Source: an uncultured Verrucomicrobiae bacterium (lineage in GTDB: Bacteria; Verrucomicrobiota; Verrucomicrobiia; Chthoniobacterales; Chthoniobacteraceae). Taken from it: a DNA stretch of 64,000 nt. The translations under genes and the position numbers were made by a program. Positions 3,900-57,248 of the stretch are shown here, piece by piece (position 1 is the first letter of the stretch; each line of letters opens with the position of its first letter). The stretch lies in contig CAWGMG010000017.1 in the NCBI GenBank assembly GCA_963823615.1, forward strand, positions 52,730 through 116,729, in the 5' to 3' direction. The notes under the pieces were generated by a model that was not told the DNA's origin, did not search any database, and saw only the letters and a program-made list of their open reading frames with translations.

Positions 3900-4658
3900 A
3901 TGTGGCTGGTTCCGGGGGATTTGAGCTGGTCGATCATCAGTTCTTTCACGTTGAGCAGTGAGGTCGAATGGAAGGAGTATCCGCTGGCGGAGTCATCCTT
4001 GAGAAATCGGATCAAGCTCCTGGAGGCGCAGGTCCGCGAGCCTACGGAGGTTGCCAGGATTGAGCTTCGCCTCTCAAATCGGCACGTGAACCGCTGGATC
4101 ACAACCAAGCCGGAGGAATGTGCTCGCGTCATCGATGAAATCAATCGTGATTATGCGCCGATCGCCGAACCGAACGAACGCTGCCAGTGGTACCTACTTC
4201 AGAGCGTCTTCCGACGGGAACTCATTCGAGGAAAGACTTCCTCCAAGGCAGTCCGTGATCAATTTGAACTATTCATGAATGACGATTCGGTGCCGCTCAA
4301 CGAGCGGATCGCTATGGTCGGAACAGTGGCGCGTGAGCTCTACACAGAGGGCGACGCGGTTCAGGCGGACAAGTACCTGTCAGATTTCGCTCAAAAGCAT
4401 CCTGAAGCTCTCACATCGCAAGCCTACTTGCACGCCTGGTTTTATGTTTCCTTGTTGGGAATCGGAGACCGGCGGAAGGCAAAGGATATTCTGGTGAAGA
4501 TCGTTCCCGCTGGGCTTGGTGCAGCGCAACTCCCCGCTACGGACCCAGCGTTCGCGATGAGCGACACATATTTTTCGGTCTTGGGATTGACGGACGACGA
4601 ACTTCGGCGACGCGCCTGGCTGGAAATGTCGAAGCGAAAGGCCGGAGCATTAAAATGA
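3900..4658 (+). CDS. hypothetical protein (first gene of low-GC island)
   Basis: ORF 3789..4658 with ATG at 3900; GC visibly lower than flanks; stop TGA overlaps next ATG (ATGA at 4655-4658), suggesting translational coupling. Confidence 0.4.
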   Translation: MWLVPGDLSWSIISSFTLSSEVEWKEYPLAESSLRNRIKLLEAQVREPTEVARIELRLSNRHVNRWITTKPEECARVIDEINRDYAPIAEPNERCQWYLLQSVFRRELIRGKTSSKAVRDQFELFMNDDSVPLNERIAMVGTVARELYTEGDAVQADKYLSDFAQKHPEALTSQAYLHAWFYVSLLGIGDRRKAKDILVKIVPAGLGAAQLPATDPAFAMSDTYFSVLGLTDDELRRRAWLEMSKRKAGALK

Positions 4659-5993
4659 AAGACATCAAACTGTTTCTAATGTTGCTGCTCGTGGCACCTG
4701 CGTCGCTCCTTGGCGGGACGTGGCTCTCCACAAAGACATTGAGTTGTTTCCGACGCAACCCTCCGGCGGCTGGTCCTTGACGCTGCCACCTAAAGGGGCG
4801 GCGGACTTCACGGTCGCATTCAAGCCGCTGAAAGTCAACGGCATCACCTACGTGTACAAGGACAAATCGGCCACGATCAAGATTACGGGTGACAATAAGG
4901 ATGTAATGTGGACAATGAGCAGTAATACGGCGGCAGCACTGCTCAATCCCAATTCGATCGCGGCGACGACCACAGCCGTCGTTACGGGGATCTGGGTGCC
5001 GGAGGGGGCGCGGGGCCGGGAGGCGGATCAGGGCCAAGCAGCATCACGGGTACAGCCACCGTCATCGGTGTCACACTTGACACCAAAGAGTGTGTTACTT
5101 GGCAAATCGATCCCAACGTGCAAAAAACGGACGGCAGTAGCGCCATCACGTACATCGCCACGGTCTACAAAGCCGATGGAACCGTGAAGGAAGATGCGCA
5201 ACTGACCTCGGTAGTCCCAATCGAGGTAAGATCGGAGTTCAATGGGCGTCCGCCACCTCCTTGGATTTCTAAATCGGACAGCCGAGCAAAGGGCGTAGCT
5301 TGGGGCGAAATCGTCTGTCCATTCCCGGCCTCTTCTAACGGAAAACTGCAACTAAGCTATGATGGGAAGACCTCCAATAGTCCATTACTTACGTTTATTC
5401 TTCCAGTGCAGATCTTATTTAAGACGAGCGGGACAATAATAAACGATCCGGAATACGTCGGGTATAAATACGCCGTGGTATATGGGCAGGGCGAGAACCT
5501 CGGGCCGTTGCCTATGGGGAGAGGGCGAGCCGAACACCCATCCTCTTACACCGCTCCGTTGATGGCCATGGCAAAGGTTCCGACTTTGCCAGGAATTAGC
5601 TTTCATTGGGTGCGACTTGTAACCCTAAGATCTTGGTTTTTTCAATTCGATCAGAACGGTAAATGCCAGGTGCTTTTCAGGACTGCTTTGAAGGGTCCTA
5701 CGCCGGACATTAATACGATGGAAGTCGTGCAGAATACGCCGAGTCCGCAGACTGGAAATATCTACATTTGGGATAACCCTGCAACGGACCCTTCTTACCA
5801 GCATCCCCCGGTGGGCGTGTACATTTACGAAAAGAAAAATTTCTACTATGCTGTGTACGACAATATAGCCACCCGGTTGCTTCCGCGGTGTTGTCGCAAA
5901 GCGCGTTCGTCCGTCGGATCGCCGGGACAGCGATCTTTACAAGCGATTATCAAGGCATCCAAAACCTCTTGCAGGTTGGAGAAGTTAGCATGA
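4655..5993 (+). CDS. hypothetical secreted protein, split over three frames (signal peptide 4655-4783; 4720-5187; 5118-5993)
   Basis: Signal peptide MKDIKLFLMLLLVAPASLLGG in frame 2 runs into the 4720 ORF and then the 5118 ORF; consistent with indel errors; low-GC island. Confidence 0.35.
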
Positions 5994-6069
5994 CAGTTAC
6001 CGACGCAGAGGTCAGGGCGCTGATCCCAGGCCAATATCAAATCGAGTATGAGCCGACGGCTAAATAATC

Positions 6070-9059: not shown

Positions 9060-9641
9060 ATGGAAGACGCCGGCCGCAAGCTCGACGACGCGCTCGTCGC
9101 CCGCACCCAGGCAGGCGACTCGGTGGCGTTCGATGAGCTCGTGGTGAAGTATTCGCCGCGCCTCTACGGCCTCGTCTACAACATGACCTCGAACCACGAG
9201 GACACGAACGACCTGCTGCAGGATGTCTGGGCCAAGGCGTATCGCTCGATCAAGGGCTTCCGCATGCAGTCGAGCTTCTACACGTGGCTGCACTCGATCG
9301 CCGTCAACATGACGATCAACTTCCTGAAGAAGCGCGGCCGCCGGCACTCGGTGAGCCTCGATGACGTCGAGAGCGGGGTGCAGAACGACAAGGAGTTTCT
9401 CGAGCTCACCGCGACCACGAATCCGGTGCGCGAGGCGGATCTCGGCGAGCTGCAAAAGCGGCTGAACGAGGCGATGCTCAAGCTCTCGGTCGATCACCGC
9501 GCGGTCGTCACCATGTTCGACATCCAGGGGATGCCGCACGCGGAGATCGCGAAGATTCTTGAAGGTGTCCGAGGGGACGGTCCGTTCGCGGCTGTTCTAC
9601 GCGCATCGGCAGTTGCAAAATTTCCTGACTGAGTTTCACTA
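9060..9641 (+). CDS. ECF-type RNA polymerase sigma-70 factor (frameshift near C-terminus ~9570)
   Basis: Region 2 (LVVKYSPRLYGLVYNMTSNHEDTNDLLQDVWAKAYRSI) and region 4 (DHRAVVTMFDIQGMPHAEIAKIL). After a 1-nt shift the frame ends ..TVRSRLFYAHRQLQNFLTEFH*. Confidence 0.85.
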
Positions 9642-9659
9642 GCCGACCTGTACCGCCTT

Positions 9660-10131
9660 ATGACTGAAGAACAACTAAGCGCCCTGCTGCGGCTGAAGCG
9701 CCACGAGCAGCCGCCCCCGGGCTATTTCGACGATCTGCTGCGCGCGGTGCATCGCCGCCAGCGCGAGGAGTTGCTCCAGCGCCCGCTGTGGCGCATCGCG
9801 CTCGAGCGGCTGCAGTGTTTCTTCGGCGAGGCAGCTCCTGGCGCCGGTCTCGTACGCCGGCGTGCTGGCGGCGGTGGCCGTGGCGGGGGTGTTCACGATC
9901 CAGTCGATGAATCCCACGAGCGCATTCCCCCGGACAGGGCGAAGTTGCGACGACGGCCGCGATGCCCAGGCCACCGGAGCATCCGGCGGACCGGGCGCTG
10001 ACGCTGCAACAGCGGCATGAGCCGCTCATTTCGCAGCAGCAATTGGACGCGCAGATCGGGTTTGCGTCGAACGCGCCCCGCTATGTCATCGATGCGCGGC
10101 CGGTGAGTTATGAGGCTCCGTCTTCGTTCTA
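9660..10131 (+). CDS. putative anti-sigma factor (frameshifted)
   Basis: Directly downstream of the ECF sigma; N-terminus MTEEQLSALLRLKRHEQPPPGYFDDLL typical of anti-sigma N-domains; a TM segment appears in a shifted frame (LLAPVSYAGVLAAVAVAGVF); stop overlaps the next gene start. Confidence 0.45.
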
Positions 10132-11187
10132 GAGGCGTCTGGCTGGCCGCCGGGCTGGCGGTGGGCGGGGCGACCGTGTGCGCCGAGCCGCCGGGGCCGG
10201 CCAATGTCTTCGACCTGCTGCAAAAACAGGTGCAGCAGGAGATGGACAAGTGCCGCGACGCGGTGGTGCGCATCGAGTCGATGGACGAGCACGGGAAAGT
10301 GGCCGGGACCGGTTTTTTCATCGATCCGAACGGGCTGCTCTACACCTCTTTCACAGTCGCCGGGGAATCGCGCGACATCTTCGCCCGCTGGGACGGCGCA
10401 CAAGTATCCCGCGCGCCGGCTGGCCGCGGATCGCCGCTGCGGCCTCGCCATTTTGAAGGTCGACGCGCAGACCGCGTTCGTGCCGATCGGCCGCTCGGCG
10501 ACGCTCTCGACGGGCTCGCCGTTGATGACGTGCGGCTACCCGATGGACTTCCCGCTCACGCCGAGCTTCGGCCTCCTCGGCGGCTTCGAGCGCAAATACA
10601 TGGACCGCTATTTTGCGACGACCCACTTGCGGGCGAATCTCTCCGTGCAGCGCGGGGAAGGCGGCGCGCCCTTGCTCAATATGCGCGGCGAGGCGGTCGG
10701 CATTTTGATCGCGAGCCTGGATCAAGGCGGCGCTTCGTTTGCGCTGCCGATGGAGGCGGCGGAAAAAGTGCGGCGCGACCTCGCGCGCTTCGGCAGAATC
10801 CGGCAGGCCTGGCTCGGCTTGCAGATGGAGACGGCGGAGCAACCGACGCTCGGCTCGACCGCGCTGGTGCAGGATCTTTTCCCCGATTCGCCCGCGCTGA
10901 AAGCGGGCATCCACGTGGGCGATTCGGTCCTCGAGATCGCCGGCCGCAAGATCGCGAGCCCGGAGGACATGATCGACGCCTCGTTTTTCCTGAGCGTGGA
11001 AGACGCCGCGCCGGTGCGGCTCGCGCGCGACGGCGCGGAGTTGACGGTGCAGGTTACGCCCGTCGACCCGCCGCGGCCGGCGGGGCCGCCGGCGGTCCTC
11101 GGCTCCACGACGCGATCCCGCGCCGGCCAAGCCGTTCGAGCTGGGGAGCGGAAAATAGCGGCTGAAAATCAAGGGAGTTCTCTTTGA
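10110..11187 (+). CDS. HtrA/DegP-like S1C fold protein with PDZ domain; catalytic triad residues substituted (H->F, D->G, S->G), putative pseudo-protease; frameshift ~10405
   Basis: GTGFFIDPNGLLYTSFTV (His position is F), GLAILKVDA (Asp position is G), RGEGGAPLLN versus canonical GNSGGPL (Ser position is G); PDZ motif GIHVGDSVLEIAGRKI. Confidence 0.7.
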
Positions 11188-11220
11188 CATGGAGCGAAAC
11201 GCCCGCCTAGCCTGCGCGCC

Positions 11221-12042
11221 ATGAGGATCCTCGTGAACCATGACGGGCAACAGCTTGGCCCTTACTCCCTGGAAGAAGTGCGCGCCGCGCTGCAGGCCGG
11301 CTCGCTGAATGCCGGCGATCTCGCGTGGGTGGAAGGGACGCCCTCGTGGGTGCCGCTCTCTCGATCGTGAATGCGCCGGACGGCGGCGCAGCTTTCGCCG
11401 CCGCGACCGCGCAGTACGCCTCAGCTGCCGTACCAGCAGGTGGGCGAAACCTCGGGTCTGGCGATCACGAGCCTGGTCCTGGGCATCGTCTGCGTACGTC
11501 CTCTTCTGCATCGGCTTCTTTTTCTCCATCCCCGCGATCATCTGCGGACACATCGCCCGGGCCAATGTACGCAACTCGCAAGGCCGGCTCAAGGGCGACG
11601 GGCTCGCGCTCGCCGGGCTGATTTGCGGTTATGTTCACCTGGCCATCTTTGTGCTGTTTATGGCCTTTGGCGCGGTGACTCCGGCCATCAGCGGAGCCTT
11701 CGAGAAGGGGCGCGAAACCAGCACGATGAACGACGCGAAGCAGATCAGCACGGCGTGCATTCGATACGCGAGCGATCACGACGGGAAGTATCCCGATTCG
11801 CTGGAAGAGCTTGCGGACAAACAGGGGCTCGATCGCAACGGTGCTGCAACGGCCCCGGCGGCGGCTGGTTTCGATTACTTCGGCAAAGGGAAAACCCAGG
11901 CGGGAATCACGCAGCCGGATCGACGACGGCGATCGTGGCGGCGAAGAACGCGAACCGCCAGGGCAAGCGGGTCGTCGGGTACGCCGATGGCCATGCCAGC
12001 CTGGACACGTTTACGCCGGAGGACGCGCAAACTCGGTCCCGA
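11221..12042 (+). CDS. DUF4339(GYF-like)/DUF4190 membrane protein with H-X9-DG-like C-terminus, split over three frames
   Basis: MRILVNHDGQQLGPYSLEEVRAALQAGSLNAGDLAWVEGTPSWVPLS; TM segments FCIGFFFSIPAIICGHIA, LICGYVHLAIFVLF; C-terminus VVGYADGHASLDTF. Confidence 0.5.
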
Positions 12043-12108
12043 ATGAGGATGGCGGCGTCCGCGGAGGAGGCCGCGCCCGATGGATGTGCACGCCTACTTT
12101 TCTTCCCA

Positions 12109-12900
12109 TGAAAATCCCCACCCTCCTCGCCGCCGCGCTCGCCCTTAGCACCGCCTCGCCGCTTCACGCTGCGATCAAGACGGAAGTCATCCCTTACGAA
12201 CAGGGAGGCACCAAGCTGGAAGGCTTCCTCGCGTACGACGACGCCAGTCGCAAAGCCGCGGCCTGGCGTGTTGCTGATCCACGACTGGATGGGCGTGGGC
12301 GACTACGCGAAGAGCCGCGCGAAGCAGTTGGCCGAGCTCGGCTACGTGGCCTTCGCGGCGGACATCTACGGCAAGGGCAACCAGCCCGCGGACCAGAAGG
12401 CCGCGGGCGCGCTCGCCGGCCAATACAAGGGCGACCGCGCGCTCTACCGCGCGCGGCTGAAGGCCGGGTACGATCAGCTCGCGGCGCGGAAGGAAGTCGC
12501 GCCGGGAGAGATCGCCGCGATCGGCTATTGCTTCGGCGGCACCGGCGTGCTGGAGCTCGCGCGGAGCGGTGCGAACCTCAAGGGCGTGGTCACTTTCCAC
12601 GGCGGTCTCGCCACGCCGACGCCCGAGGACGCGAAGAACATCAAGTGCCCCGTGCTCGTGCTGCACGGCGCGGACGATCCATTCGTGAAGCCGGCGGAGG
12701 TCGCGGCCTTCAAGGAGGAGATGGAGAAGGCGCACGTGAAATACGAGTTCGTCGCCTACCCCGGCGCCGTCCATTCCTTCACCCGCCCCGATGCGGGCAA
12801 CGACAACAGCAAAGGCGCCGCCTACAACGAAGCCGCCGACAAGCAATCGTGGGCGGCGATGCAGAAGTTCTTCAAGGAGATCTTCGGAGCGAAAGGGTGA
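12109..12900 (+). CDS. dienelactone hydrolase family protein (frameshift ~12262)
   Basis: Signal peptide MKIPTLLAAALALSTASPLHA; DLH motifs GVLLIHDWMGVGDYAK..IGYCFGG..VLVLHGADDPFV..AYPGAVHSF. Confidence 0.8.
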
Positions 12901-13400
12901 GCACCGCCGGCGCCCGGGCGGAAGAGCCGACCGAGTACGAAGCGGCGCCGCTGTGGCGCCGCTTTTCCGCATTTGCGGTCGACTACGCGCTGGTCATCCT
13001 GATCGTCGCGATTCCTTTCGTCCTCGTCTCCGGGAACCAGGCGCTGTTTCTCCTGCTCGTCACGCTCAACTTCGCCACGGCGCTGAGCTACCGCTTGTTC
13101 GGCGACGGAATTTTCCAAGGCGCCGCCTTGGGCAAACGGCTCTTCGGCATCTACGTGGTCGACGCGAAAACAAGGCAGCCCTGCTCGAAGAAACAGGCGC
13201 TGCTGCGTATGATCTACCAGTGGGTCCCGGTGTTTGCCGTCGTCGACGGCATCGTCTTGATTTGCGATGGCCTGCAGCGTTGGGGCGACCGAATCGCGGG
13301 CACTTACGTCCTGCTTCGCCATCCAAAACCACCTCCGCTGCCCAAGCAATTGCGCCCCGTCGACTTTGCGGCGATCCGGGCCTCGCTCAAGAAACCGTAG
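12897..13400 (+). CDS. RDD family membrane protein
   Basis: GTG start overlapping the upstream stop; RRFSAFAVDYALVILI..; Arg-Asp-Asp spacing and two TM helices. Confidence 0.65.
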   Translation: MSTAGARAEEPTEYEAAPLWRRFSAFAVDYALVILIVAIPFVLVSGNQALFLLLVTLNFATALSYRLFGDGIFQGAALGKRLFGIYVVDAKTRQPCSKKQALLRMIYQWVPVFAVVDGIVLICDGLQRWGDRIAGTYVLLRHPKPPPLPKQLRPVDFAAIRASLKKP

Positions 13401-13430
13401 CGCACGCGATCCGCGCCGCGCATCTTTCAG

Positions 13431-14694
13431 TTGAACCCACCGCCCATTCCGGGCATTGATAGCTGCACCCCACGGCCCGTGACCCCTCCTGCCCCCAGAA
13501 CGAGAAGCCATCTCGTCGCGTTTTCCCTCGCGTTCGCGATCGCGGCGACGTGCCTCACGCTGGCGCTCTCGGCGAGCGGCCGGCTCGAGCAACACTACAT
13601 CCACGCCCTGGCGCCGGAGGTCGCGGTGGAGGAGACGAAGGCGAAGCTCCTCGGCGTCGTCCTCCAGCGCGTGGCCTTTGCGCAGCCGGATCTCCTCGTC
13701 CTCTACGGCAGCTCCGAGCTGGTGAAGCCGATGGAGAACCGGCCGAGCGATTTCTTCGCGGATTACCCGACCGGGCTTCACCGTCTTCCCCGTCGGCAAG
13801 CCGGGCGCGACCTCGCTCACGGTGGCGCAGAAGCTCGGCGGCGTCGGCGGGACGCTGCGCGGGAAGAAGCTCGCGATCTCGCTCTCGCCCGGCTGGTTCT
13901 TCACCGAGGTCTTCGATCCCAAATACTACGAGGGGAATTTCTCCGAGAACCAGGTGATGCAGCTCGTCTATGGCAACGAGCTGAGCTGGGATCTGCGCCG
14001 GGATCTCGCGCGGCGCATGGTCGAATACCCGCGCACCCTCGACAACCGCCCGCTGCTCGATTTCTCGCTGCGCTGCCTCGCGTCGGAATCGGCGGTGGAT
14101 CATTTGCTCTTCTACGTCTCGCAGCCGCTCGGCCAGCTCAACCGCGCCATCTGCCTGGCGCAGGACCATCTCGAGGTGGCCATCCATATCCTGGAGGAGT
14201 ACGACACGCTCAAGGCGCGGCCGCGGCTGGAGCGCCGGGTCGTCTGGAACGACGTGCTGAAGCGGGCGGTGCGCTTCTCCAACAAGAACGCGGTGCAGAA
14301 CAAGCGCAACGAAGTGGTGCGCCGGCACCTGCCGCGGGCGTCGCGCGATCTCGCGTTCCGCAGCACGCTCGCCGCGGCGAAGGAGTGGACCGATTTCGAG
14401 CTGATGCTGCGGGTGCTGAAGGAGCTGGGCGCGAAGCCGCTGATCATGAGCATGCCGGTCGAGGACATCCGGCTGGAGGTCTACGGCATCTCGCCGGAGA
14501 CGCGCACGGCCTACAACGAGCGCCTCGTCGGCCTCACCGCCCGCTATCAATTTCCGCTCGTCGACTTTCACGAGTACCAGCGCGACCCATCCTTTCTGGT
14601 CGATTTCCTCGATCACTTGAGTGCCTCCGGCTGGCTTTACTATAACAAGGCGCTGGACGATTATTTCCACGACCGCCTGACGCAGGCGAACTGA
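13431..14694 (+). CDS. dltD: DltD-like protein (frameshift ~13785)
   Basis: N-terminal TM anchor; LVLYGSSELVKP (GSSE motif) in the 13431-frame continues in the 13822-frame; DltD-like C-terminal region (..LIMSMPVEDIRLEVYGISPETR..). Confidence 0.65.
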
Positions 14695-14707
14695 GCCCCC
14701 AATTTTT

Positions 14708-14953
14708 ATGACTGAAAACTCCGATAAGATCATGGACGTCCTCGCCAACGTCGCCGAAACCGATGAGGTCCGCACCAACCCCGACCTGGCGCTCTACGAC
14801 CTGCAAATCCTCGACTCGATGAAGACCGTCGAGCTGATGGTGGCGCTCTCGAGCGAAGTCGGGGTCAACGTCTCGCCGGCGGAATTCGAGCGCGAAAGCT
14901 GGGCCACCCCGGCCAAGCTCGTCGCCGATGTCCTGCACCGAATGGAGGCCTGA
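14708..14953 (+). CDS. dltC: D-alanyl/acyl carrier protein (DltC-like)
   Basis: 81 aa; LQILDSMKTVELMVALSSEV contains the phosphopantetheine-attachment Ser motif (DSM). Confidence 0.65.
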   Translation: MTENSDKIMDVLANVAETDEVRTNPDLALYDLQILDSMKTVELMVALSSEVGVNVSPAEFERESWATPAKLVADVLHRMEA

Positions 14954-14958
14954 TTCCT

Positions 14959-15111
14959 ATGCAAAAACGTGTCCTGACCTGGATGGAAGCGCACCCGAAG
15001 ACGCGGACGGTGCTGCTCACGCTCTACTATCTCGGCGTGATCGCGGGCCTCGTGGCGCTGTACGGCCGCGGGGATTTCTCGACGCCGGCGTTTGTGTATC
15101 AGGAGTTCTGA
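14959..15111 (+). CDS. dltX: DltX-like small membrane protein
   Basis: 50 aa, MQKRVLTWMEAHPKTRTVLLTLYYLGVIAGLVALYGRGDFSTPAFVYQEF; single TM plus C-terminal F-x-Y-x-x-F motif typical of DltX. Confidence 0.55.
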   Translation: MQKRVLTWMEAHPKTRTVLLTLYYLGVIAGLVALYGRGDFSTPAFVYQEF

Positions 15112-15518
15112 GGTGAGTGCTGGCCGCCTGGCGTCTGGCGCGGCAGTGCGTCGGAACGTGCCTGGCTTGTTGAAAGGTATCGCCATTGGGGTTGCGTCAA
15201 TGCTTCGTGCTCGGTGCGCCATTGTCGCCGGGCGGGCATCCGCGAACGCGTGCATCGCCGAAGGACAGGCGCGATGGATTGCGCGCTCATTCCGACGGAG
15301 ACGGACGTTCGAGGAAGTAGTCCACTTGCGCAGCAGGATGACCCGACAATTCTGCGTGACCAGTGGAGTCCCGGCAGCGGGCGATGAGTTCGCGCGCGGA
15401 CCGGTCGTGCAGGGCAGGACGATCTGGATCCGGCGCGACCGTTTCATCCACTGGGAAACCGCGCGCTGAGCGCAAGCTGTTGCTTCCCCTGGCGCCGAGC
15501 TTGGTGTATTCCACCCGG

Positions 15519-16774
15519 ATGCAGCTTCTTCCCGGTTTTCGTGAGTTCCCGCCCGCCGAGTGCGCGCGGCGCAATTACATCCTCTCGCGCTGGCGCGAGG
15601 TCGCGCGGCGCTACGGCTTCGTCGAGTTCGATGGCCCGATGCTGGAGCCGATCGAGCTCTACCAGAAAAAGAGCGGCGGCGAGCTCGTCGGGCAGCTCTT
15701 CGATTTCGTCGACAAGGGGAAGCGCCACGTCGCGCTGCGGCCCGGAGATGACGCCGACGCTCGCGCGCATGGTGGCGGCGCGGCACCGCGATTATCGCAA
15801 GCCGATGAAGTGGTTTTGCGTGCCGCCGTTCTTTCGCTACGAGAAACAGCAGCGCGGCCGGCTGCGCGAATTCTGGCAGTTGAATTGCGATCTCTTCGGC
15901 GACAACTCGCCCGCGCGCCGACGCGGAGATGCTCGCCGTCGTCATCGACATGCTGCGCGTGCTTCGGCTTCGGCGCCGCAGGACTTCGTCGTCCGCCTGA
16001 GCGACCGCGACGCGTGGGCGCGTTTCGCGGCGAAGCACGGCGTCGCGGCCGAGAAACTGCCCGAACTGCTCGCGGTGGTGGACAAGCTGGAGCGCACGAC
16101 GGCCTGAGGAGAGCGCGGAGAGGCTCGCCCCGTTCGGCCTGAGCCTGGACGAGGTGCGCGAGTTCATCGCGAATCCCGGTGATGAAACGCAGAAGCTCGA
16201 CGGCATTCGCGCCGACCTGCGCGCGCGCGGGCTGGAGGAATACGTGGAGGTCGATCTCACAATCGTGCGCGGGCTGGCTTACTACACCGGGCTCGTGTTC
16301 GAGGTGTTCGACCGCGCAAAAAACGAGCGCGCGCTCGCCGGCGGCGGCCGCTACGACCAGCTCATCTCCGTGATGAGCGAAGGCAAGGTCGACCTCCCCG
16401 CGCTCGGCTTCGGCATGGGCGACGTGGTGCTCGGCAACTTCATCGACGACCACCCCGGCGCGGCGGAGAAGATGAAGCAATGGATCGCCTCGCAACACGC
16501 CGCGGATGTCTTCGTCATCATCGCCAAAGAGGAGCGCCGGCCCGACGCGCTCGCGCTCGTGCAGACGCTGCGCGAAGCCGGCCAGCGCGTCGATTACGAG
16601 CTCGGCGCCGCGAAAGTCGGCAAGCAATTCCAGACCGCCGAGCACCTCGGCGCGCGCTTCGCGGTCGTCATCGGCGACGAATGGCCGCAGGTGAAGGTGA
16701 AGACGCTCGCGACGCGCGAGGAGCGGGTGGTGGGGGTGGGGGAGGTGGCGGGGGTGGTGGCGGGCGGGGAGTGA
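15519..16774 (+). CDS. hisS: histidine--tRNA ligase, fragmented across at least 3 frames by indels
   Basis: [38 protein letters not shown] | ..[53 protein letters not shown] | ..[30 protein letters not shown].. plus C-terminal anticodon-binding domain. Confidence 0.85.
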
Positions 16775-16779
16775 GTGAA

Positions 16780-16924
16780 CAGAGACAATCAGACAATCAG
16801 ACAATCAGACAATCAGAGTTCCTAGCAGACGCGCGTCGGAACGATGGGGTGAGTTCGGAATGAACGTCACGTGCGCTGCACTCGTGCGGCGCCCCATTCT
16901 GATTGTCTGATTGTCCGATTGTCT
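16780..16924. repeat. inverted arrays of octamer CAGACAAT (4x, 16780-16817) and ATTGTC(T/C)G (3x, 16899-16924) flanking ~80 nt; long hairpin/cruciform potential
   Basis: cagagacaatcagacaatcagacaatcagacaatcagag ... ctgattgtctgattgtccgattgtct; lies between the hisS stop and the trx start. Confidence 0.7.
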
Positions 16925-19350: not shown

Positions 19351-19956
19351 GGCTGGGGATAGCCAGGAAAAGCCTACTTTCGCGAGGCGAATTGAGCCAG
19401 CCCAAATAACCCTTCGTGCGGCTTCCGAAGCGGCAGAGAACCGGCCGCAGGCAAGGTGCGGTTACCTGCATGAGGACCGCCGCGTGCGGGTGGCGGCTGA
19501 TGGCAGGGCTGCGAAGACCGCGCCCGCTCAGGCGTGACCCTGATTGCGAGCCGCCGGACGAAATAAAAGTGAAACACTTTTCCAATAGGAGTTGTGAGAA
19601 TCGGTGATTGAATCTTGGGGTGCTCACCGTGCCCTCATCCTCCCGGCAGGCTCAGAACCTCTGGCCCACCGCGGCAGCTGCGCAGTCGCCAAAGGCCCCT
19701 GAGCTTGCCGGCTGGGGAGTGCGTGCGCGGCCGCGCGGCCATGAATGCCGGGGGCCGAACCAGGGCCACGATCGATCGCAAACCGCTCCTGCCCGCGCAA
19801 GCGGCGGAGCACGCCAAACTCCACGCTGCTTCACGTGGTCCGCACAGTCCTCTGTGCGGTCGCCGCTTTCCGGGAAGATCGTCAGTGGCCGCGTTCGTTG
19901 TCTCTCGTTTGAAGCGGCTTCCCATAAAGCCGCGAAAGTCACGCTCGCCCACGCTT

Positions 19957-20590
19957 CCTCTGAGACCGATTCCCGAAATTCCCGAAATGCGCCCCCCACC
20001 ACTCAGCCGACGGCGTAAACTGTGCAAGCCTTCCCGAAACTCACCGCGCCTGCGTTTTTCCTCTGAGACCGATTCCCGTAATTCCCGAAATGCACCCACT
20101 CCCACCCGCTCAGCCGCGGCGAAAACCGTGCAATCCTTCCCGAAACTCCGCCGCGCCCGCGCTTTTCCTCTGAGACCGTTTCCCGTAATTCCCGAAATGC
20201 ACCCACTCCCACCCGCTCAGCCGCGGCGAAAACCGTGCAATCCTTCCCGAAACTCCGCCGCGCCCCGCGTTTCTCCTCTGAGACCGATTCCCGTAATTCC
20301 CGAAATGCACCCACTCCCACCACTCAGCCGGTGGCGAAAACCGTGCAATCCTTCCCGAAACTCCGCCGCGCCCCGCGTTTCTCCTCTGAGACCGATTCCC
20401 GTAATTCCCGAAATTCACCCGCTCCCACCACTCAGCCGGCGGCGAAAACCGTGCAATCCTTCCCGAAAATCCGCCGCGCCCGCGTTTTTCCTCTGAGACC
20501 GATTCCCGAAATTCCCGAAATTCACCCACTCCCACCATTCAGCCGGCGGCGAAAACCGTGCAATCCTTCCCGAAACTCGCCGGGCCAAAC
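19957..20590 (+). repeat. tandem array, 6 units of ~103-109 bp (unit starts ~19957, 20060, 20167, 20275, 20383, 20490)
   Basis: Unit cctctgagaccgattcccgtaattcccgaaatgcacccactcccacc..gcgaaaaccgtgcaatccttcccgaaactccgccgcgcc.. repeated with few substitutions; unit lengths are not multiples of 3. Confidence 0.9.
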
Positions 20591-25536: not shown

Positions 25537-28500
25537 CTACCGGCGCGGTGCAGGCCGGAGCGACAGCGATTCGTTCTCGGAGCGCAGCTCGACGGCGTCC
25601 GGTGGCGGCACGGTCCTCCGATCATACGGCCAAGGCGTGGAAAACAACACGGAGGGTGTGGGCAGGAAGCGCGGCGGCTGCGAGGGCGGGTAGGACTGAT
25701 AGAACGGCGTCGCCGCGCGGAACGGGCGGACGCGGTCGCGCTCGCCTCTGGGATAATCCATGGAGCTCGGCTGATAGCTTCTCGTTTCCGGCGTGCACGA
25801 GCGAATCACCATGTTCAGCAGGATGACGCCGAAGAAGATCCAGCGTCCGATGGACAGGGGACCCATGGATTTGCCGCCCCCCGGCTGGCGAATCCAGCTC
25901 GACCGGTACCGCTCGCCGGCGAGCTGCGCCATCAGCCCGACGGCCCGCCGGGTCACCGGCTTGAGCAGCCCGCCGTGCAGATAATTGGCGGTGGGGGATT
26001 GGTTGAGCCGAGCGATGCGGTTGCGCAACTCCGCGGGCCGGCCCGCGGCGGGCGTCCGGTGGACCGAGAGCCCGGCATTCACGACCTCGCGCAGCGCATC
26101 GTAGAACGCGCCGTCGCCGCCGAATTGCGCCGCGCTGGCGAAGCTTGCCGCGTCGTCGAAACGCTGCGCCAGGAGCGCGTCGGAGGCCATCCACAGCTGG
26201 TGGTGGCGCGTCGTGTGATCCGGCGGTTCGGCGAGCGCGCGCCGGCTGGCGGCCACGCCTTCCGGCACGCGTCCCAGTCGCCGGAGCACGACCGCCACGT
26301 TCAACAAAATCCACGGCGGAATCGACGGGCGCCGCTCCCACTCGCGGAACCAGGCGGCCGCTTCCTTGTTCTGATTGAGCTGCACCAGGATCGCGCCGGC
26401 CTGGCCCCAGAGCTCCGTGTCGGCGCGCAGGGCCGGGCCGGAGGCACGCAGCAGCCACCGCAGCTCGTCGAGTTTGCGGTGCTTCGCGAGGCGCTCGAGG
26501 TAGGCGAGGTGCGCGCGCTGGCCGACGGGCGTGGTGAACCCCAGGAACGCCAGCGCGCGATAGGTGCGCGTGCCGCCGCGCTCGCCGACGAGTTCGCCGA
26601 AGAGCCCACCCGCCGCGGGCGAGGCGCCTTCCTCGGTCAGCCACGAGGCCAGCCGCTTTTCGAGCTCCTGCCGCTGGCCGGCGGCGAGGAGCGCCTGCCC
26701 GGCCGCCGCGACCGCGGAGCCGTCTTCGTCGCGAGTGAGGCAGAGCTGCCGCATCGTTTCGAGCGCCTCCGGGAACTCGCGCCGGGCGAGGTGGAGCCGG
26801 ACCTCGCCACCGACGGTCGTGGCGCCGGGGAGGTGCAACTTCATGCGCGCGAGCACTTCCGCGGCCTCGTCGAAGCGCCCGGCCTTGAGGTGCTGCTCGA
26901 AGAGATTGTGCGAGGCGAAGCCGTAGGAGGGATCGAGCTCCATCGCGCGGCGCAGAAACGGGAGCGCCTCCTCCGCGCGATTCGCACGCAGCAGCAGGCT
27001 GGCGCGCCAGCCCAGGGGAATGGCGCTTTGGGGAGCGAGCCGGCAGAGTTGTTCCGTCGCCTCGAGCGCCCCGGGGAAGTTCTCCAACTGCGACTCCCAC
27101 TCGACCAGCCGATGCCAGCCCCAGGTGAAATCCGGCTCGTCGCGCAGCAGCGCGCGCATCGCGGTGACGGCGCCGTGGAGATCGCCCCGCTCGGCGTCGA
27201 CCCAGACCCGGCGGCCGCGCAAGGCGACGGGAAGCTGGTCCGCGGGCCATGCCGCCGGAGCGCAGGCCGCGGCCGCCTCCTCCCAGCGGCCGGCGCCGGC
27301 CAGCAGCAACGCGCGGCCGTCGTGGGCATCGCCAAACCGCGGATTTAGCGCCAGCGCGCGATCGATGGCCCCGAGGCGTGCCGGGAGATCGGTGACGGGA
27401 AGGCATTCCGCGAGGCGCAGCCAGGATTGCGGCTCGGCGGGCCGCAGCTCCGTGAGCGAACGGGCGCATTGCAACGCGCGGCCCTCCAAGCCTGGGCGTT
27501 GCGAGAAGCGGCGCAGCAGATCCCAGCCGGCCTCGTGCCCCGGCTCCAGCCGCAGCGCGCGCTCGGCGGCTTCCGCGGCGGCCTCGGCACGGCCGCGTTT
27601 GTCGAGCAGCGCCGCCAGGTGCGTGTGATTCTCGGGATCGAGCGGCGCCGCGGCGATCGCCACCTCGAGCACGCGCTGCGCCTCGTCGAGATCATCCCCG
27701 CGCTCGTGGGCGGTCGCAAGCGCGCGGGCTGCTTCGCCGCAGGCCGGCTGCAGGACGAGCGCGCGGCGCAGCGGCCGGATCTGCTCCACGCGTTCGCCGC
27801 GCGCCACGTGGACGCGGGCCAGGTTCAGCCAGAGCGGCACGAGCAGCGGGAAACGCTCGGTCGCCTCGGTCGCGAGGGTCAGCGCCTCGTCGAGCTGCCC
27901 CATGGCGGTGAGCTGTTGCACCGTCGCCGACCACGCGTGCCACAGGTCGGGACGCGCGGCGAGCGCCTCGCGCAGTCCGGCCAGCAGCTCCGGCGGCTCG
28001 AGAATCGGGAAGGCCAGATTGCGATAAGAGAGCAGGCCGTCGCCCAGCACCACCTGGCGAATGAGCTCCTGGCGAATGAAGGCGATCGACTCCCGGCGCT
28101 CGCCAAAGCTCTCGCTCGCCGTCAGCAGCTCAACCATGGCCGGCGTGTGATCGACCGAGAGCCGCAGCCCTTCGCGCGCCGCCTCCCGCGCCGCGGGGAG
28201 ATCGCCCGCGAGCCGCGCGAGCAGCGCGCGGATGGCGCAGTTGATCGGTTCGCTTCGCTCCAGGGCCTCGGCCCGCGCCAACTGTTCGCGCGCCTCCGGC
28301 AGGTGCCGCTGATCGGCCAGCGTGAGCGCCAGTTCGCGCCGCGCCCAAGCGTCGTCCGGATTCATCGCCAACAGCGCCTCGACCGACTCCTGCAGCGCCG
28401 CCGCGCCGCTCGCCCGCGCCGATTCCACCGCCAGCCGGCGCAACCCCAGGTGATGCGGGAAGCGCTCGATCTGCGCGGCCAGGTGCGCGTTGGCGGCTTC

Positions 28501-30867
28501 GCGTCCCGCGGTCTCCGCGGTCAGGCGCCCCACGCAGTTGTGCGCATCCATCGCCAGCGGCTCGGCGGCCAGCACCTCGCCCCAGAGCGCGAGCGCCTCG
28601 CGCAGATCGCAGCGATAATCGGCCAGCGTGGCGGCGGCCCGCAGCCACGCGGCGCCCGCGGATCGCTCCTTCGCCTGGGCCAGCAATCCGGCGGCGCGGT
28701 CAAAATCGCCGAAGCGGCCAAACGCGTCGGCCGCGAACAGCAGCAGATCTCCATCCGCGGGGCGCAAGGTGAGCGCGTGTTCGAGCCGCGCAAAGGCCTC
28801 GGGGTGCCGGTCGAGCACGCTCAGCGCCCAGAAAAGCACCCGCGCCGGTTGGGCGGAGAGCGCCGCGTTTTGCTCGAAGCGCTGCGTGAGCAACTCCACC
28901 ACGCGGTCGGCCTCGCGCAGATGCCGCGCGGCCATGAGATACGCCCTGGCGAAACCGTCCACCTTGTCGCGCAGGCAGGCCGCGTGCCGGTAAAGCTGCG
29001 TGGCCACGGCGAACTCCCGGCCCGCCCAGCGCAGATCGCCGAGCGCCGCGAGATTGGCAGCGTCCAGCGCCTGCGCGCGCACGCTGCGCGTCAGCCAGCG
29101 CAAGGCACGGCCCTGTTCGCGCGCGTCCTTCGCCAGGTGCTGCCCCCATTCCCGCCAGAAGGCCGGCTCCGGCCCCTGCGCGAGCTCCCGCAGAAACGCC
29201 TCGGCTTCCGGCGCGTGCCCGAGCTCGCGGAGGAGGGCAAGCTTCGGATACTGCAGGTGGCCCGCCGTGGGGAAGCGCTCCAGCAGCGCCTCGAGCGCCC
29301 GCAAGCCGCGCGCGTGATCCGCATCGTACGCAGCCAGCACCCGCTCCGCCTCGAGCGCGAGCCGATGGCCGGGCGAGCCGGTGTGCAATTCACCGAGCAC
29401 CCGTTCCGCGTCGGCCCGCCGATGCTCATGCAGCGCGCGGCGCACCTGGAAATAGCGGTCGTATTCGGCGGCGTCCGGCAACTCCAGCCCCTCCAGTCGC
29501 GCCGCGTCCGCCACCGGCAGCAGCACCATGCCGCGCGGGCCGCTGGAGGCGTAACGCTCCAGCAGCAGCTCCGCAAAAGCCTCGCCATTCGTTCGCTCAA
29601 ACGGATCGCGGATGAGCAAAGTCCCGCGGGCGCGGTCGTACCCGATGACGGCCTGGAGGTGCGCGCTTTGCGTCTCCAGCGTCACCATGGTGAAGGGCAG
29701 GCCGCGATCGAGCAGCGCGAGCGCCGCGTCCCAGGTGACGCGAAATTCGCGCACGGCCCAGCCGTTCTGCTGGAGCCATGCGCGCTCTTCGTGATCCGGC
29801 GTGCCGTCGTAGCAGATGAGGCGCGCCAGCGAGAGGTGATCGATGGGCGCCCCGAGGAAGATGCTGAGCGCGCTGAGCGTCGCCGGCGCGCACGTCATGT
29901 GATGCTGGCGCACAAAGGGGACGGGCAACAGCACACGGCCCGTCTGCGCGGGCGCGCCATTCGCCGCGGTCAGGCGCTCGTGGAGCCTGGCGAAGAAGGG
30001 CGTCCCCGCCTTGGCCGCCGCTTCCGCCGCCGCTGCCACGTCGCCACAGGCATAGTGCGCATCGGACATGCGCCCGTGCCACCACGCGCTGACCTCCTGT
30101 TCCATGAGCGGCGAGAGATCGGCGCAAAGCTGGTAACTTTTCAGCGCGCCGGGGTGGTCGCCGAGCTCCGCCTGCAGGGTCGCCAGGGTTGCGGCGAAGA
30201 CGGCGCATTCCGTGTGCTGGAGCGCCTCCTGGAGCAGCGCCACCGCGTCGTGATCGCGTCCGAGCAGCGGGAGCACCTCGGCGGCGGCGCAGACCGCGCC
30301 ACGAAACCACGGTTGCAAACGCAGGCCCTCCTCGGCCGCGGCCAGCGCCTGCGGGTAGCGGTCGCGCGCCTTCAGCAACTCGGAGCGCAGCACCCACGGC
30401 CACGGGCGGGGCTCCGCATGGATCTCCCCCGCGCGGTCGAGATGTCGCTCGGCCTCGTCAAAATCACGAAACAGGGTGAGCACGGCGCACCGGGCCAGCT
30501 CCAGGTCCGCGCGCTCCTCGTCGGTCGCATTGGGGAACGCCGGCCGGAGCTCGAGAAAATCCCAGGCGCCGCGTGGCCCGCGCTCCCGCAGCAAAGCGTA
30601 CGCCCGGAAGTACGCCGCCGCGGCGCTCGTGCGATCCTCGCGCCATGCGCGCTGGTGCAGCCGCCGCGCCGTCCGCGGCGCGCCGATGTTCGAAGCCAGA
30701 CGGCCGGCGACCAGGGCGGCGGCCGTGCCCGACCACGCCTCCAGCGGCGCGACCTCCAAAGCGCGCCGGTGCGCCTGCAGGAGAAGCCCTCGATCGTAGA
30801 GCGCTTCCACCGCAGCCACATCCGCCATCGAAACCGTCACACACGCGCGCGCTGGGGAAGCAAGCAT
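25537..30867 (-). CDS. giant TPR-repeat protein with embedded papain-fold C39-like peptidase domain and C-terminal TM segment
   Basis: Dozens of TPR-like helical repeats; peptidase region VPFVRQHHMTCAPATLSALSIF..TQSAHLQAVIGYD (Cys..His); C-terminal WIFFGVILLNMVI. Confidence 0.65.
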   Translation of the reverse strand: MLASPARACVTVSMADVAAVEALYDRGLLLQAHRRALEVAPLEAWSGTAAALVAGRLASNIGAPRTARRLHQRAWREDRTSAAAAYFRAYALLRERGPRGAWDFLELRPAFPNATDEERADLELARCAVLTLFRDFDEAERHLDRAGEIHAEPRPWPWVLRSELLKARDRYPQALAAAEEGLRLQPWFRGAVCAAAEVLPLLGRDHDAVALLQEALQHTECAVFAATLATLQAELGDHPGALKSYQLCADLSPLMEQEVSAWWHGRMSDAHYACGDVAAAAEAAAKAGTPFFARLHERLTAANGAPAQTGRVLLPVPFVRQHHMTCAPATLSALSIFLGAPIDHLSLARLICYDGTPDHEERAWLQQNGWAVREFRVTWDAALALLDRGLPFTMVTLETQSAHLQAVIGYDRARGTLLIRDPFERTNGEAFAELLLERYASSGPRGMVLLPVADAARLEGLELPDAAEYDRYFQVRRALHEHRRADAERVLGELHTGSPGHRLALEAERVLAAYDADHARGLRALEALLERFPTAGHLQYPKLALLRELGHAPEAEAFLRELAQGPEPAFWREWGQHLAKDAREQGRALRWLTRSVRAQALDAANLAALGDLRWAGREFAVATQLYRHAACLRDKVDGFARAYLMAARHLREADRVVELLTQRFEQNAALSAQPARVLFWALSVLDRHPEAFARLEHALTLRPADGDLLLFAADAFGRFGDFDRAAGLLAQAKERSAGAAWLRAAATLADYRCDLREALALWGEVLAAEPLAMDAHNCVGRLTAETAGREAANAHLAAQIERFPHHLGLRRLAVESARASGAAALQESVEALLAMNPDDAWARRELALTLADQRHLPEAREQLARAEALERSEPINCAIRALLARLAGDLPAAREAAREGLRLSVDHTPAMVELLTASESFGERRESIAFIRQELIRQVVLGDGLLSYRNLAFPILEPPELLAGLREALAARPDLWHAWSATVQQLTAMGQLDEALTLATEATERFPLLVPLWLNLARVHVARGERVEQIRPLRRALVLQPACGEAARALATAHERGDDLDEAQRVLEVAIAAAPLDPENHTHLAALLDKRGRAEAAAEAAERALRLEPGHEAGWDLLRRFSQRPGLEGRALQCARSLTELRPAEPQSWLRLAECLPVTDLPARLGAIDRALALNPRFGDAHDGRALLLAGAGRWEEAAAACAPAAWPADQLPVALRGRRVWVDAERGDLHGAVTAMRALLRDEPDFTWGWHRLVEWESQLENFPGALEATEQLCRLAPQSAIPLGWRASLLLRANRAEEALPFLRRAMELDPSYGFASHNLFEQHLKAGRFDEAAEVLARMKLHLPGATTVGGEVRLHLARREFPEALETMRQLCLTRDEDGSAVAAAGQALLAAGQRQELEKRLASWLTEEGASPAAGGLFGELVGERGGTRTYRALAFLGFTTPVGQRAHLAYLERLAKHRKLDELRWLLRASGPALRADTELWGQAGAILVQLNQNKEAAAWFREWERRPSIPPWILLNVAVVLRRLGRVPEGVAASRRALAEPPDHTTRHHQLWMASDALLAQRFDDAASFASAAQFGGDGAFYDALREVVNAGLSVHRTPAAGRPAELRNRIARLNQSPTANYLHGGLLKPVTRRAVGLMAQLAGERYRSSWIRQPGGGKSMGPLSIGRWIFFGVILLNMVIRSCTPETRSYQPSSMDYPRGERDRVRPFRAATPFYQSYPPSQPPRFLPTPSVLFSTPWPYDRRTVPPPDAVELRSENESLSLRPAPRR

Positions 30868-30997
30868 CCGCTATGAGAGCATAAAAGCTCTTCCGCGCAA
30901 CGTGTGTCTGGGCGTTGGCGGATCGAGCGTTTTCTCCGCTGCGGCGAGTGAGAGTGCTCAACTCGCGCGCCGGTATTCCTGGCTGGCTAATGGCCTG

Positions 30998-50180: not shown

Positions 50181-50414
50181 TCTCAGAGGAAGAGCGGGCG
50201 CCGTGGCGCCGGAGGCCCTGAGCGTGGCGAAGGTGCCGCAGGCCCTGAGCCGGTCGAAGGGTTTCGGGAAGGTTTGCGCAGTTTCGCGGGACGCTGGACG
50301 AGGCATTTCGGGAATTTCGGGAATCGCGCTCAGAGTAAGTGAAGGAGCCGGCGAGAGGAGGCTGAGGCGAGGTTTCGGGAAGGAATGCGCAGTTTTCACG
50401 GGAGTGGCTGGGCG
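50181..50414 (-). repeat. tandem repeat array (same family as 19957-20590, inverse orientation), part 1: ~2 units ending at the intron 3' junction
   Basis: rc units ..cgaaatgcctcgYccagc..gaaaactgcgcattccttcccgaaac..; terminal palindrome module at 50155-50189. Confidence 0.85.
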
Positions 50415-52498
50415 AGGCATTTCGGTAGAGTAGGCGGGAAGCGACGGATTGAGAGGCACACGGCCAATGACCGTCTGCTTCCCGCCCCTCATCAAACCGG
50501 ACAGGCGGTTTTCCCGCATCCGGCTTTCCGAGTTCCATTCTCGAAAAGCGCTGTCTCATGTGCATGGGGTCGGCATTTTGTAGAGCCCGTATTGCGTGAA
50601 GAGTTCCCGATTTGCCCAGCGTTTGTATTTGCCACAGGGATTGCCGTGCTTGCGCCATAACCACTGCCGGAGGCGGTGGGCCACGAAGGTATTCAGTTGC
50701 CCGAAGCTCCGATGGTACTGGGCGAGGGCAAAGAAATTGCCCCAGCCACGGGTCACTTGGTTGATTTCACGCACGACTTCCTCGGTCGCTCTCCACACGG
50801 AGCGCGCGTGGGTTAGCTCGCGCACCCGGTCGCGGAGCGCCTGCCCCTCGGCGGGCTCGGGGCCTTGAGCTTGTCGAAACGGCTCCGCTTCCGGGCTGGG
50901 CTCGATGTGCACGTACGCCGTCTTCTTCTTGGATTGTTGCCAGCGGAAGCTGAAGCCGAGGAACTCAAAACCGCTTTCACGGCTCTGGAGCACTTCGGTT
51001 TTCTTCTCGTTGAGGGCCAGGCCGCGGCTTTGCAGCCAGCGGGCCAGCCGCTCCTTCATGCCCGCTCCTTGCCCGGTTCCGCAGAGGATGACCAGATCGT
51101 CCGCAAAGCGGACCATCCACGGCTTTTGCCGGCACTGTTCATTGACCCCTTCATCCAGCGGATGCAGGTAAATGTTGGCCAGCAGGGGCGAGATGACGCC
51201 TCCCTGCGGTGCGCCGCAGGGGTTGGCCTTCATCTTCCGCCCGCCGCCTTTCTCCTCCTCCATCACCGGGGCGCGCAGCCATCCTTTGATGAGCTGGAGG
51301 ATCGTCCCGTCCCTCACCCGCCGCGCCACCAGCCGCAGCAGTTTCCCGTGCGGGATCGTGTCGAAGTACTGCGCCAGATCGGCGTCCACTACCGAGGAGG
51401 CGGAGGGGACAAGGGAGGTTGCAGGGCGGGCGAGCCCTTCGGTGCGGCCACTGCGCAGCCCCTGCCGGATCGCCTCCACCGCCCCGTGCGCTCCACGCCC
51501 GGGCCGATAGCCGAAGGAGAGCGGATGGAAGTCCGCCTCGAAAATCGGCATCAGCACCAAGGACACGGCCATCTGCACCACGCGATCCTTCACCGTCGGG
51601 ATGCCCAACCGGCGCACCCCTCCATCGGGCTTCGCGATCTCCGCCCGGAGCACTGGCGCCGGCCGGTACGTCTTGGCGCGCAACTCCTCCCGCAGCGCCT
51701 CCAGCCACGCCACTTCCTTTTCCTGATCTGCCGCAAGGTCCGCAATCTCCACTCCAGCAACCCCCGCGACCCCGCCATGGGCCTTCACGCGCCGCCACGC
51801 TGTCTCCAGCACATCGGCGCGCTGCACCTCTCCATACAGACTCCAGAACCGGGAGCCCGGACTGGACTTCGCTTTCCGATACAGCGTGATTTGCAACTGC
51901 CGAACCTTTTTGGGTGCTGGTAGCTCCTGCGAGCCGTCACCACGGCTCGCCCGGGACCCTGCCGCCACTTGTCCCGTGCGCCGCCGCCTCGGTCCTTCGT
52001 TGCGCTTCACTTCTGCGGAACAAGTGGCGTCCCTTTGCTCCCCCATGTTTTCTCCGAACCAGAGGTCCAGCATGGGATCAACGCTACTACGAACGCCTCC
52101 GACTTCTGCCGTGGCCGCACGGCCTCCCTCTTTCGGAGAGGTTGGGCCGCTTGTTGAGTCAGGTTTACTCGCCATGGCAGATCTCCCCGTTTACCCGCAC
52201 ATCACTTCGCGACATGTCGTCCACGCCGACCCCGCCGGTCTAATATCCCCACCCGCGACGGTTGGTCTGGGTGCGGACTCTTCGGCCTTCGCCCAAATTC
52301 CAGGGGCTCGGCTGCCGGGAGTATCCTTTCGAGGCTCATTTATGTGGTTCATATGGTTATTACGACCTGCCGGTTCGACTCCATGCCTGCTCCCCACCCC
52401 GCCTCGCGGCGACGCAGTTGGCACGGTCTTCGGTGCTGAACCGTCTAAGTGCACCGGCGGGACTTGCACCCGCGTTGATGTGCGCTTTGCGGGCGCAC
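50415..52498 (-). mobile_element. group II intron (2084 nt) with intact RT/maturase ORF
   Basis: 5' end GUGCGCCCG (rc of 52490-52498); domain V aaGCCGGAugCGGgaaaaCCGccugUCCGGuu (rc of 50481-50516); domain VI GGGCGGGAAGC..GCUUCCCGCC then ..uacucuac 3' end at 50415; IEP ORF lies between. Confidence 0.85.
50556..52175 (-). CDS. group II intron-encoded reverse transcriptase/maturase (true start probably at an internal Met, ~52046-52073)
   Basis: RT0-RT7 motifs: ..VLETAWRRVKAHGGVAGVAGV.., IAKPDGGVRRLGIPTVKDRVVQ, FADDLVIL (YADD variant); maturase/X domain; C-terminus GNPCGKYKRWANREL. Confidence 0.85.
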   Translation of the reverse strand: MASKPDSTSGPTSPKEGGRAATAEVGGVRSSVDPMLDLWFGENMGEQRDATCSAEVKRNEGPRRRRTGQVAAGSRASRGDGSQELPAPKKVRQLQITLYRKAKSSPGSRFWSLYGEVQRADVLETAWRRVKAHGGVAGVAGVEIADLAADQEKEVAWLEALREELRAKTYRPAPVLRAEIAKPDGGVRRLGIPTVKDRVVQMAVSLVLMPIFEADFHPLSFGYRPGRGAHGAVEAIRQGLRSGRTEGLARPATSLVPSASSVVDADLAQYFDTIPHGKLLRLVARRVRDGTILQLIKGWLRAPVMEEEKGGGRKMKANPCGAPQGGVISPLLANIYLHPLDEGVNEQCRQKPWMVRFADDLVILCGTGQGAGMKERLARWLQSRGLALNEKKTEVLQSRESGFEFLGFSFRWQQSKKKTAYVHIEPSPEAEPFRQAQGPEPAEGQALRDRVRELTHARSVWRATEEVVREINQVTRGWGNFFALAQYHRSFGQLNTFVAHRLRQWLWRKHGNPCGKYKRWANRELFTQYGLYKMPTPCT

Positions 52499-57229: not shown

Positions 57230-57248
57230 GTTTTCGTGAAATCGTCGC

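Follow-up and report, generated by a model that had tools for sequence, protein, structure and literature searches.

The genes dltD, dltC and dltX, which lie on the plus strand within positions 13431-15111 of the 64-kb stretch of DNA analysed here (hereafter, the window), probably belong to the canonical Dlt pathway of a Chthoniobacteraceae-like soil verrucomicrobium whose dltA and dltB are unlinked and located elsewhere. The family identity and the motifs of the DltD, DltC and DltX proteins are confirmed, and the coordinates of the three genes agree with those of the initial annotation. In the sequence as given, the two pieces of dltD are found in two different frames, and the removal of a single base near 13773-13776 restores the continuity of the gene. 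The features of the locus, with the evidence used to assign each of them, are as follows:

13431-13775, plus strand: N-terminal piece of dltD (frame of 13431; Pfam DltD profile positions 6-51)
13773-13776, plus strand: one-base insertion shifting the dltD frame (comparison with loci L001 and L088 and with homologues)
13774-14694, plus strand: C-terminal piece of dltD, with the SGNH-like domain (PF04914, PDB DltD matches, invariant columns)
14708-14953, plus strand: dltC, encoding an 81-aa D-alanyl carrier protein (NF003464, TIGR01688, PDB matches)
14959-15111, plus strand: dltX, encoding a 50-aa membrane microprotein (PF12459, tblastn, C-terminal motif)

The first product had been described as a DltD-like protein with a transmembrane anchor and a GSSE motif, and profile searches, solved structures and hydropathy all agree with this description. 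The profile comparison proposed in the initial annotation for DltD and DltX gave, in the case of DltD, a match of PF04914 to the 290-aa ORF at 13822-14694 with E = 1.3e-33 over profile positions 70-348. Beyond the stretch that corresponds to profile positions 6-51, the ORF in the frame of 13431 continues as an Arg/Ala-rich translation without any match. When one base is removed, the rebuilt protein comprises 420 aa, and alignment with 400-aa homologues indicates that the true start is likely the GTG at 13479, giving a product of approximately 404 aa. This frame-corrected protein scored 159.4 bits with the NCBIfam model TIGR04092 (LTA_DltD; cut-off 150) and matched the solved DltD structures 6pfx, 6o93 and 3bma with E = 1e-12 to 2e-8. 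The membrane anchor is LVAFSLAFAIAATCLTLAL, with a Kyte-Doolittle hydropathy of 2.3, and the SGNH block-I motif GSSE is located at 13707-13718, within the N-terminal piece. The C-terminal piece is closed by the invariant block DFLDHLS..GWLYYNKALDD, which holds the candidate catalytic His. In the comparison with the solved structures, GSSEL was aligned to GSSEL of 6pfx and 6o93, and HLS..GW to HLGWKGW of 6pfx. Both GSSE and DFLDHLS..GW are kept unchanged in nine homologues, and a catalytic role is predicted for them. The identity between the window DltD and the DltD proteins of Bacillales is only 24-28%.

The description of the second product as a DltC-like carrier with a DSM motif was upheld by two equivalog-level DltC models, both of which it passes: NF003464 with 81.4 bits (cut-off 68) and TIGR01688 with 77.7 bits (cut-off 52.35). 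All eight of its PDB matches are D-alanyl carrier proteins in which LDSM is aligned to LDSM, the best of them being the apo-D-alanyl carrier protein 1dv5 (E = 4.6e-15), and the predicted phosphopantetheine-attachment serine is Ser37 (DSM, 14813-14821). The third product, previously reported as a 50-aa DltX-like peptide ending in FVYQEF, consists of one hydrophobic helix followed by this C-terminal motif (15091-15108), which includes Tyr47. Its match to PF12459 is a marginal pass, with 25.2 bits against a cut-off of 25 (a margin of 0.2 bits), and a PDB sequence search with DltX returned no match. DltX peptides of full operons used as tblastn queries recover the window dltX with E = 1e-18 and 1e-14, and the window peptide is 64-98% identical to those of relatives and full operons. 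The C-terminus has the form F[VI]Y[QNT]xF in 60 of the 60 loci compared, Bacillus included, and the DltX assignment is retained. FXYXXF is an acyl-shuttle motif, in which the Tyr carries D-Ala between DltB and DltD (PMC12148441).

Directly 3' of dltX, a small ORF was observed on the plus strand (15092-15469), whose counterpart is a 102-aa ORF of locus L088 with an N-terminal hydrophobic segment and a GC3 of 0.81. The window ORF is only 52% identical to this counterpart and is broken by indels. Because a counterpart is absent 3' of dltX in L001 and L002, this ORF probably does not belong to the dlt module. Downstream of dltX, no signal over background was obtained in scans for promoters and terminators or by RNA folding.

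At positions 13773-13776, the window reads ACCGGGCTTC, compared with ACCGGCTTC in L001 and ACCGGGTTC in L088 (aligned at the insertion as ACC-GGCTTC for L001 and ACCGGG-TTC for L088), and the sequence DYPT(G/D)F.VFPVG is uninterrupted at this site in eight of eight aligned homologues. L088 is an independently assembled contig of 7.5 kb that is syntenic with the window and encodes a DltD 94% identical to that of the window. It carries, in this order, genes for a Trypsin/PDZ protease, a GYF/DUF4190 protein, a dienelactone hydrolase (DLH), an RDD protein, DltD, DltC, DltX, the 102-aa ORF and HisS. These nine genes are all intact in L088, whereas five of them are split by indels over two to three frames in the window, namely hisS, dltD and the genes for the Trypsin/PDZ protease, the GYF/DUF4190 protein and the dienelactone hydrolase. 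Over 7.6 kb, 59 indel events separate the window from L088, and the one-base events comprise 26 insertions and seven deletions in the window. Single-base indels pervade window positions 9100-16800, for instance at 10396, 11113, 13776, 15744, 15909, 15962, 15975 and 16098. The hisS gene, which encodes an essential tRNA synthetase, is divided among three frames, and a thioredoxin-like gene is likewise split, between two. Two breaks in an essential tRNA synthetase have no plausible biological explanation, so that the extra base in dltD very probably stems from an error of assembly or sequencing, and unpolished long-read data are a possible cause of the indels. No lesion besides the insertion at 13773-13776 was detected in dltD, dltC and dltX. 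An ORF-based reading of window positions 9100-16800 requires frame correction. The possibility that dltD is read through a programmed frameshift was rejected, as the site is continuous in all eight homologues and similar one-base insertions break unrelated neighbours.

Selection on the three genes was estimated from the same relatives. Relative to L088 and L001, dN/dS values were 0.15-0.22 for dltD, 0.04-0.10 for dltC and 0.07-0.11 for dltX, and they ranged from 0.12 to 0.41 relative to the more distant L002. All told, the values for dltC spanned 0.04-0.12. These ratios, together with the invariance of the catalytic and shuttle motifs, indicate that dltD, dltC and dltX are under purifying selection, as part of a working system rather than one in decay.

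The initial annotation had pointed out that DltA and DltB are missing nearby, and this was borne out across the whole 64-kb window. A tblastn search with verrucomicrobial DltA and DltB proteins (from L004 and L005) gave nothing better than E = 0.02 in the window, and the same search recovered DltC and DltX at the expected places. Pfam scans of 30 further large ORFs of the window detected no AMP-binding or MBOAT domain, the genes found being ordinary chromosomal ones (PBP1A, TrmD, IspD, FtsK and others). Outside the window, no DltB on the contigs of P0121 (which has an identical DltC), L001 or L002 was present among the best 120 of 6,439 DltB matches, a weak indication, as dltB may be carried by other contigs. 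No genome was found to carry both a DCX-only and an AB-only locus, no DltB could be assigned to any near relative of the window through the NCBI accession numbers of the DltD, DltC and DltB proteins of TPA MAGs, and the scan of metagenomes yielded no contigs belonging to the L001 sample. We infer that dltA and dltB are located elsewhere in this genome.

DltD homologues of approximately 400 aa are numerous in MAGs of Chthoniobacteraceae and other Verrucomicrobiota, where they are named DltD by the source pipelines. Most Chthoniobacterales/Udaeobacter loci carry a complete D-C-X-A-B operon. This arrangement was found in many GTDB species representatives of Chthoniobacteraceae and Candidatus Udaeobacter and in approximately 35 metagenome loci; it is present in full in L004, L005, L007, L008, L011, L013, L029, L032 and L087, whose DltD proteins are 51-60% identical to that of the window. 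In L087, the operon additionally contains an ORF between dltX and dltA and a second dltD after dltB. The order D-C-X, which had been taken as reversed relative to the Gram-positive operon, is therefore the head of the usual verrucomicrobial D-C-X-A-B. Similarly, the locus does not represent the distinct partial system that had been suggested but one of the several ways in which an ordinary operon of five genes has been fragmented, and two related MAGs keep dltB on another contig. In GCA_038207335.1, D-C-X-A is found on JBBQZX010000018 (L089) and dltB alone on JBBQZX010000007 (L010), and in GCA_043777315.1, D-C-X-A is found on JAYVPW010000115 (L091) and dltB alone on JAYVPW010000124 (L009). The interpretation given in the initial annotation is supported in part, and the module is not regarded as an orphan.

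The fragmentation states observed among the loci are diverse. A lone dltB occurs in the conserved synteny RibD, T2SSF, HSP20, HSP20, dltB, PHP (L086 and L093), and PHP is likewise found beside the complete operon of L005 and L087, which indicates that dltB kept its position and that the other genes moved away. Loci with D-C-X-B and without dltA are represented by L030, L157 and L165, and an A-B-D-D-D arrangement without dltC or dltX by L014. L106, on a contig of 313 kb, has dltA and dltB only, and its flanks of 8-10 kb are free of dltD, dltC and dltX. The loci with only D-C-X are those of the window, L088, L001 and L002; among them, the DltD of L001 is approximately 82% identical to that of the window and the DltD of L002 approximately 60%, and the flanks of L001 and L002 are unrelated. 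The complete operons closest to the window in their D, C and X components are L087, L099, L103 and L112 (58-60% identity for DltD and up to 87% for DltC), and in these operons dltX and dltA are separated by a spacer of 140-800 bp, which in L087 contains the small ORF. The AB-only locus L106 belongs to this same subclade, with a DltB 83% identical to that of L112. The break behind the arrangement of the window most likely took place at the loosened X-A junction of this subclade. G+C content gave no discrimination between the lineages.

Loci of the dlt type bearing DltB were also found in records labelled Planctomycetota, Anaerolineae/Chloroflexia (Chloroflexota) and Gemmatimonadota, the phylum assignments outside Verrucomicrobiota being the taxon labels of the MAG records. 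In each of the phyla sampled, the majority of complete operons retain the X-A-B core, and dltC and dltD shift around it, the order being X-A-B-C-D in Bacillus, D-X-A-B-C in Planctomycetota and C-D-X-A-B in Anaerolineae. The verrucomicrobial DltB proteins are 43-47% identical to Bacillales DltB over their full length, and the DltA proteins of the relatives are 42-50% identical to Bacillales DltA. A DltB is also encoded by the isolate 'Verrucomicrobiota bacterium sgz303538'.

Two further features of the dlt genes of the relatives were observed. Extra DltD paralogues, 36-38% identical to the window DltD, follow dltB in several loci, with three in tandem in L014 (11492-15446) and one each in L087 (15677-16900), L099 and L103. 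Their presence hints that several acceptors could be served by a single set of DltA, DltB, DltC and DltX. In addition, DltB occurs in a short form of approximately 400 aa and in a long form of 490-560 aa with a C-terminal extension of approximately 90-150 residues, the long form being present in the subclade closest to the window in D, C and X (DltB coordinates: L005, 13213-14682; L087, 14082-15569; L106, 10001-11566).

Other explanations of the locus have to be weighed against a canonical pathway with unlinked dltA and dltB. The module could be a true orphan in which the canonical dltA and dltB have been lost, with DltD, DltC and DltX served by another ligase and another MBOAT protein or acyltransferase and placing an acyl group other than D-alanine on an envelope polymer. 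If true, such an orphan cassette would modify an envelope polymer of this verrucomicrobium in a new, carrier-protein-dependent manner, and it would be in agreement with the occurrence of DCX-only loci in three or more lineages that differ in their flanks, still under purifying selection, as well as with the lack of a DltB from DCX-only contigs among the best 120 of the 6,439 DltB matches. However, the window DltD, DltC and DltX are ordinary orthologues (53-87% identity) of the proteins of complete operons, with unaltered motifs, and related genomes in which a gene is seemingly missing carry that gene on another contig. Moreover, AB-only and B-only loci exist that need D, C and X elsewhere, and DltX and DltD work with DltB in the characterised pathway (PMC12148441). 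Taken with these points, an orphan module is considered unlikely.

The cargo could also differ, if an unlinked DltA-like ligase loaded an amino acid or acid other than D-alanine and the product was not a D-alanyl ester. Nothing direct speaks for this, although the acceptor must differ from the teichoic acids of Firmicutes and the DltA proteins of the relatives share only 42-50% identity with those of Bacillales; the passing of equivalog-level DltC models by DltC and the full-length identity of 43-47% between the DltB proteins of the relatives and those of Bacillales make a different cargo quite improbable. The interruption of dltD in the sequence as given and the absence of dltA and dltB from the window are, in turn, what a decaying remnant might display, in which the dltD frameshift would be real and the module would be in the course of being lost after the loss of dltA and dltB. 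However, the essential hisS is spread over three frames and four other neighbours are broken, all of them intact in L088 with its 94% DltD identity, and the excess of one-base insertions over deletions (26 versus 7) looks like a systematic error. With no further lesion in dltD, dltC or dltX and dN/dS values of 0.04-0.22, there is very little to recommend decay as an explanation.

Under the preferred reading, a canonical Dlt pathway with dltA and dltB unlinked, an ancestral dltD-C-X-A-B operon would have broken between dltX and dltA in this lineage. DltA would adenylate D-alanine and load it as a thioester onto the phosphopantetheine arm of DltC at Ser37, and the MBOAT protein DltB would pass the D-alanine across the inner membrane to Tyr47 of DltX (in FVYQEF), at the outer face. 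From there, DltX would hand it to the GSSE catalytic serine of DltD, the membrane-anchored SGNH protein, which would transfer it, on the periplasmic face, to a hydroxyl group of an envelope polymer as an ester. By analogy, the acyl group transferred would be D-alanine. No teichoic acids are known in these diderms, and the acceptor must therefore differ from that of Firmicutes; possible candidates are LPS, a lipid or another glycopolymer. This is in keeping with the non-teichoic-acid polymer put forward in the initial annotation, a classical teichoic acid being counted unlikely in a diderm. The steps are proposed by homology with the characterised Firmicute pathway (PMC12148441).

The closest known system is DltXABCD of Firmicutes (Bacillus, Staphylococcus, Streptococcus), which is built from the same families: an SGNH DltD with GSSE and an N-terminal anchor, a DltC with DSM, and a DltX with a C-terminal FXYXXF. 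The likeness extends to the verrucomicrobial relatives in which dltA and dltB directly follow dltX. In contrast, the order is X-A-B-C-D in Firmicutes and D-C-X-A-B in Verrucomicrobiota, the operon of the window is broken after dltX, and its host is a diderm of the Verrucomicrobiota in which no teichoic acid is known, which calls for another acceptor. In another diderm, Vibrio cholerae, AlmEFG aminoacylates an envelope lipid in a carrier-protein-dependent way, using a DltA-like ligase and a DltC-like carrier. However, AlmG is an enzyme of the lipid A acyltransferase family acting at the cytoplasmic side, and AlmEFG has no MBOAT protein, DltX or DltD. Dlt-type pathways in diderms are also represented by the dra locus of Bordetella and by the dlt genes of Dickeya and Pectobacterium, which are contiguous and belong to Proteobacteria, whereas the locus described here is split and belongs to Verrucomicrobiota. 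MBOAT-SGNH acetylation, exemplified by AlgI/AlgJ/AlgX as well as by the PatA/PatB pairs, offers a further comparison. In PatA/PatB-type pairs, the acyl-Tyr of FXYXXF is handed to the SGNH serine, the donor is acyl-CoA, no carrier protein takes part and the motif is fused to the MBOAT protein (PMC12148441). The chemical logic is thus shared with Dlt, but in the window DltX is encoded on its own and is accompanied by a DltC carrier, a combination that distinguishes Dlt proper. An MBOAT-SGNH acetyltransferase pair of the PatAB/AlgIJ type was ruled out as an identity of the locus by the presence of a separate DltX and a DltC-type carrier protein. For Dickeya and Pectobacterium, the dlt genes are thought, in a passage of PMC5541007 that refers to Pandin et al. 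2016, to modify LPS or another component of the outer envelope and to lower the negative charge of the surface.

Several features of the window outside the dlt locus were also recorded. A 107-bp unit is repeated in 5.9 tandem copies (93% matches) in an intergenic region at 19955-20586, and a diverged core copy of this unit is found upstream of ftsK at 50303-50331 on the minus strand. An ORF encoding an IS200-like Y1 transposase is located at 57240-58334, and a REP/RAYT-type relation between the 107-bp repeat and this transposase is possible. Adjoining ftsK, the minus-strand ORF at 50559-52190 encodes a reverse transcriptase/maturase of a group II intron (RVT_1 and GIIM domains). An ORF of 1777 aa on the minus strand (25540-30870) encodes many TPR repeats and a Peptidase_C39-like domain, and the G+C content of this stretch is unusually high (72-74%, compared with approximately 65%). 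Conversely, the region 4001-6000 has a G+C content of 53.7%, compared with approximately 65% elsewhere, and no convincing long ORF; it is possibly foreign or non-coding DNA.

The finding described here is that of a known pathway in a little-studied phylum, and its local peculiarity is the unlinked position of dltA and dltB. The DCXA/B, DCXB/A and DCX/AB splits observed in Chthoniobacterales mean that the five genes need no co-transcription, and a partial locus is a poor ground for inferring that the pathway is absent. No literature naming dltA, dltB and Verrucomicrobia together was found, and abundant Verrucomicrobiota of soils (Chthoniobacter, Udaeobacter) commonly carry complete and well-conserved dlt operons. 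Given this lack of literature on dlt in Verrucomicrobia, together with the fact that we know of no teichoic acids in this group, what gets D-alanylated in these diderms is a concrete and testable question.
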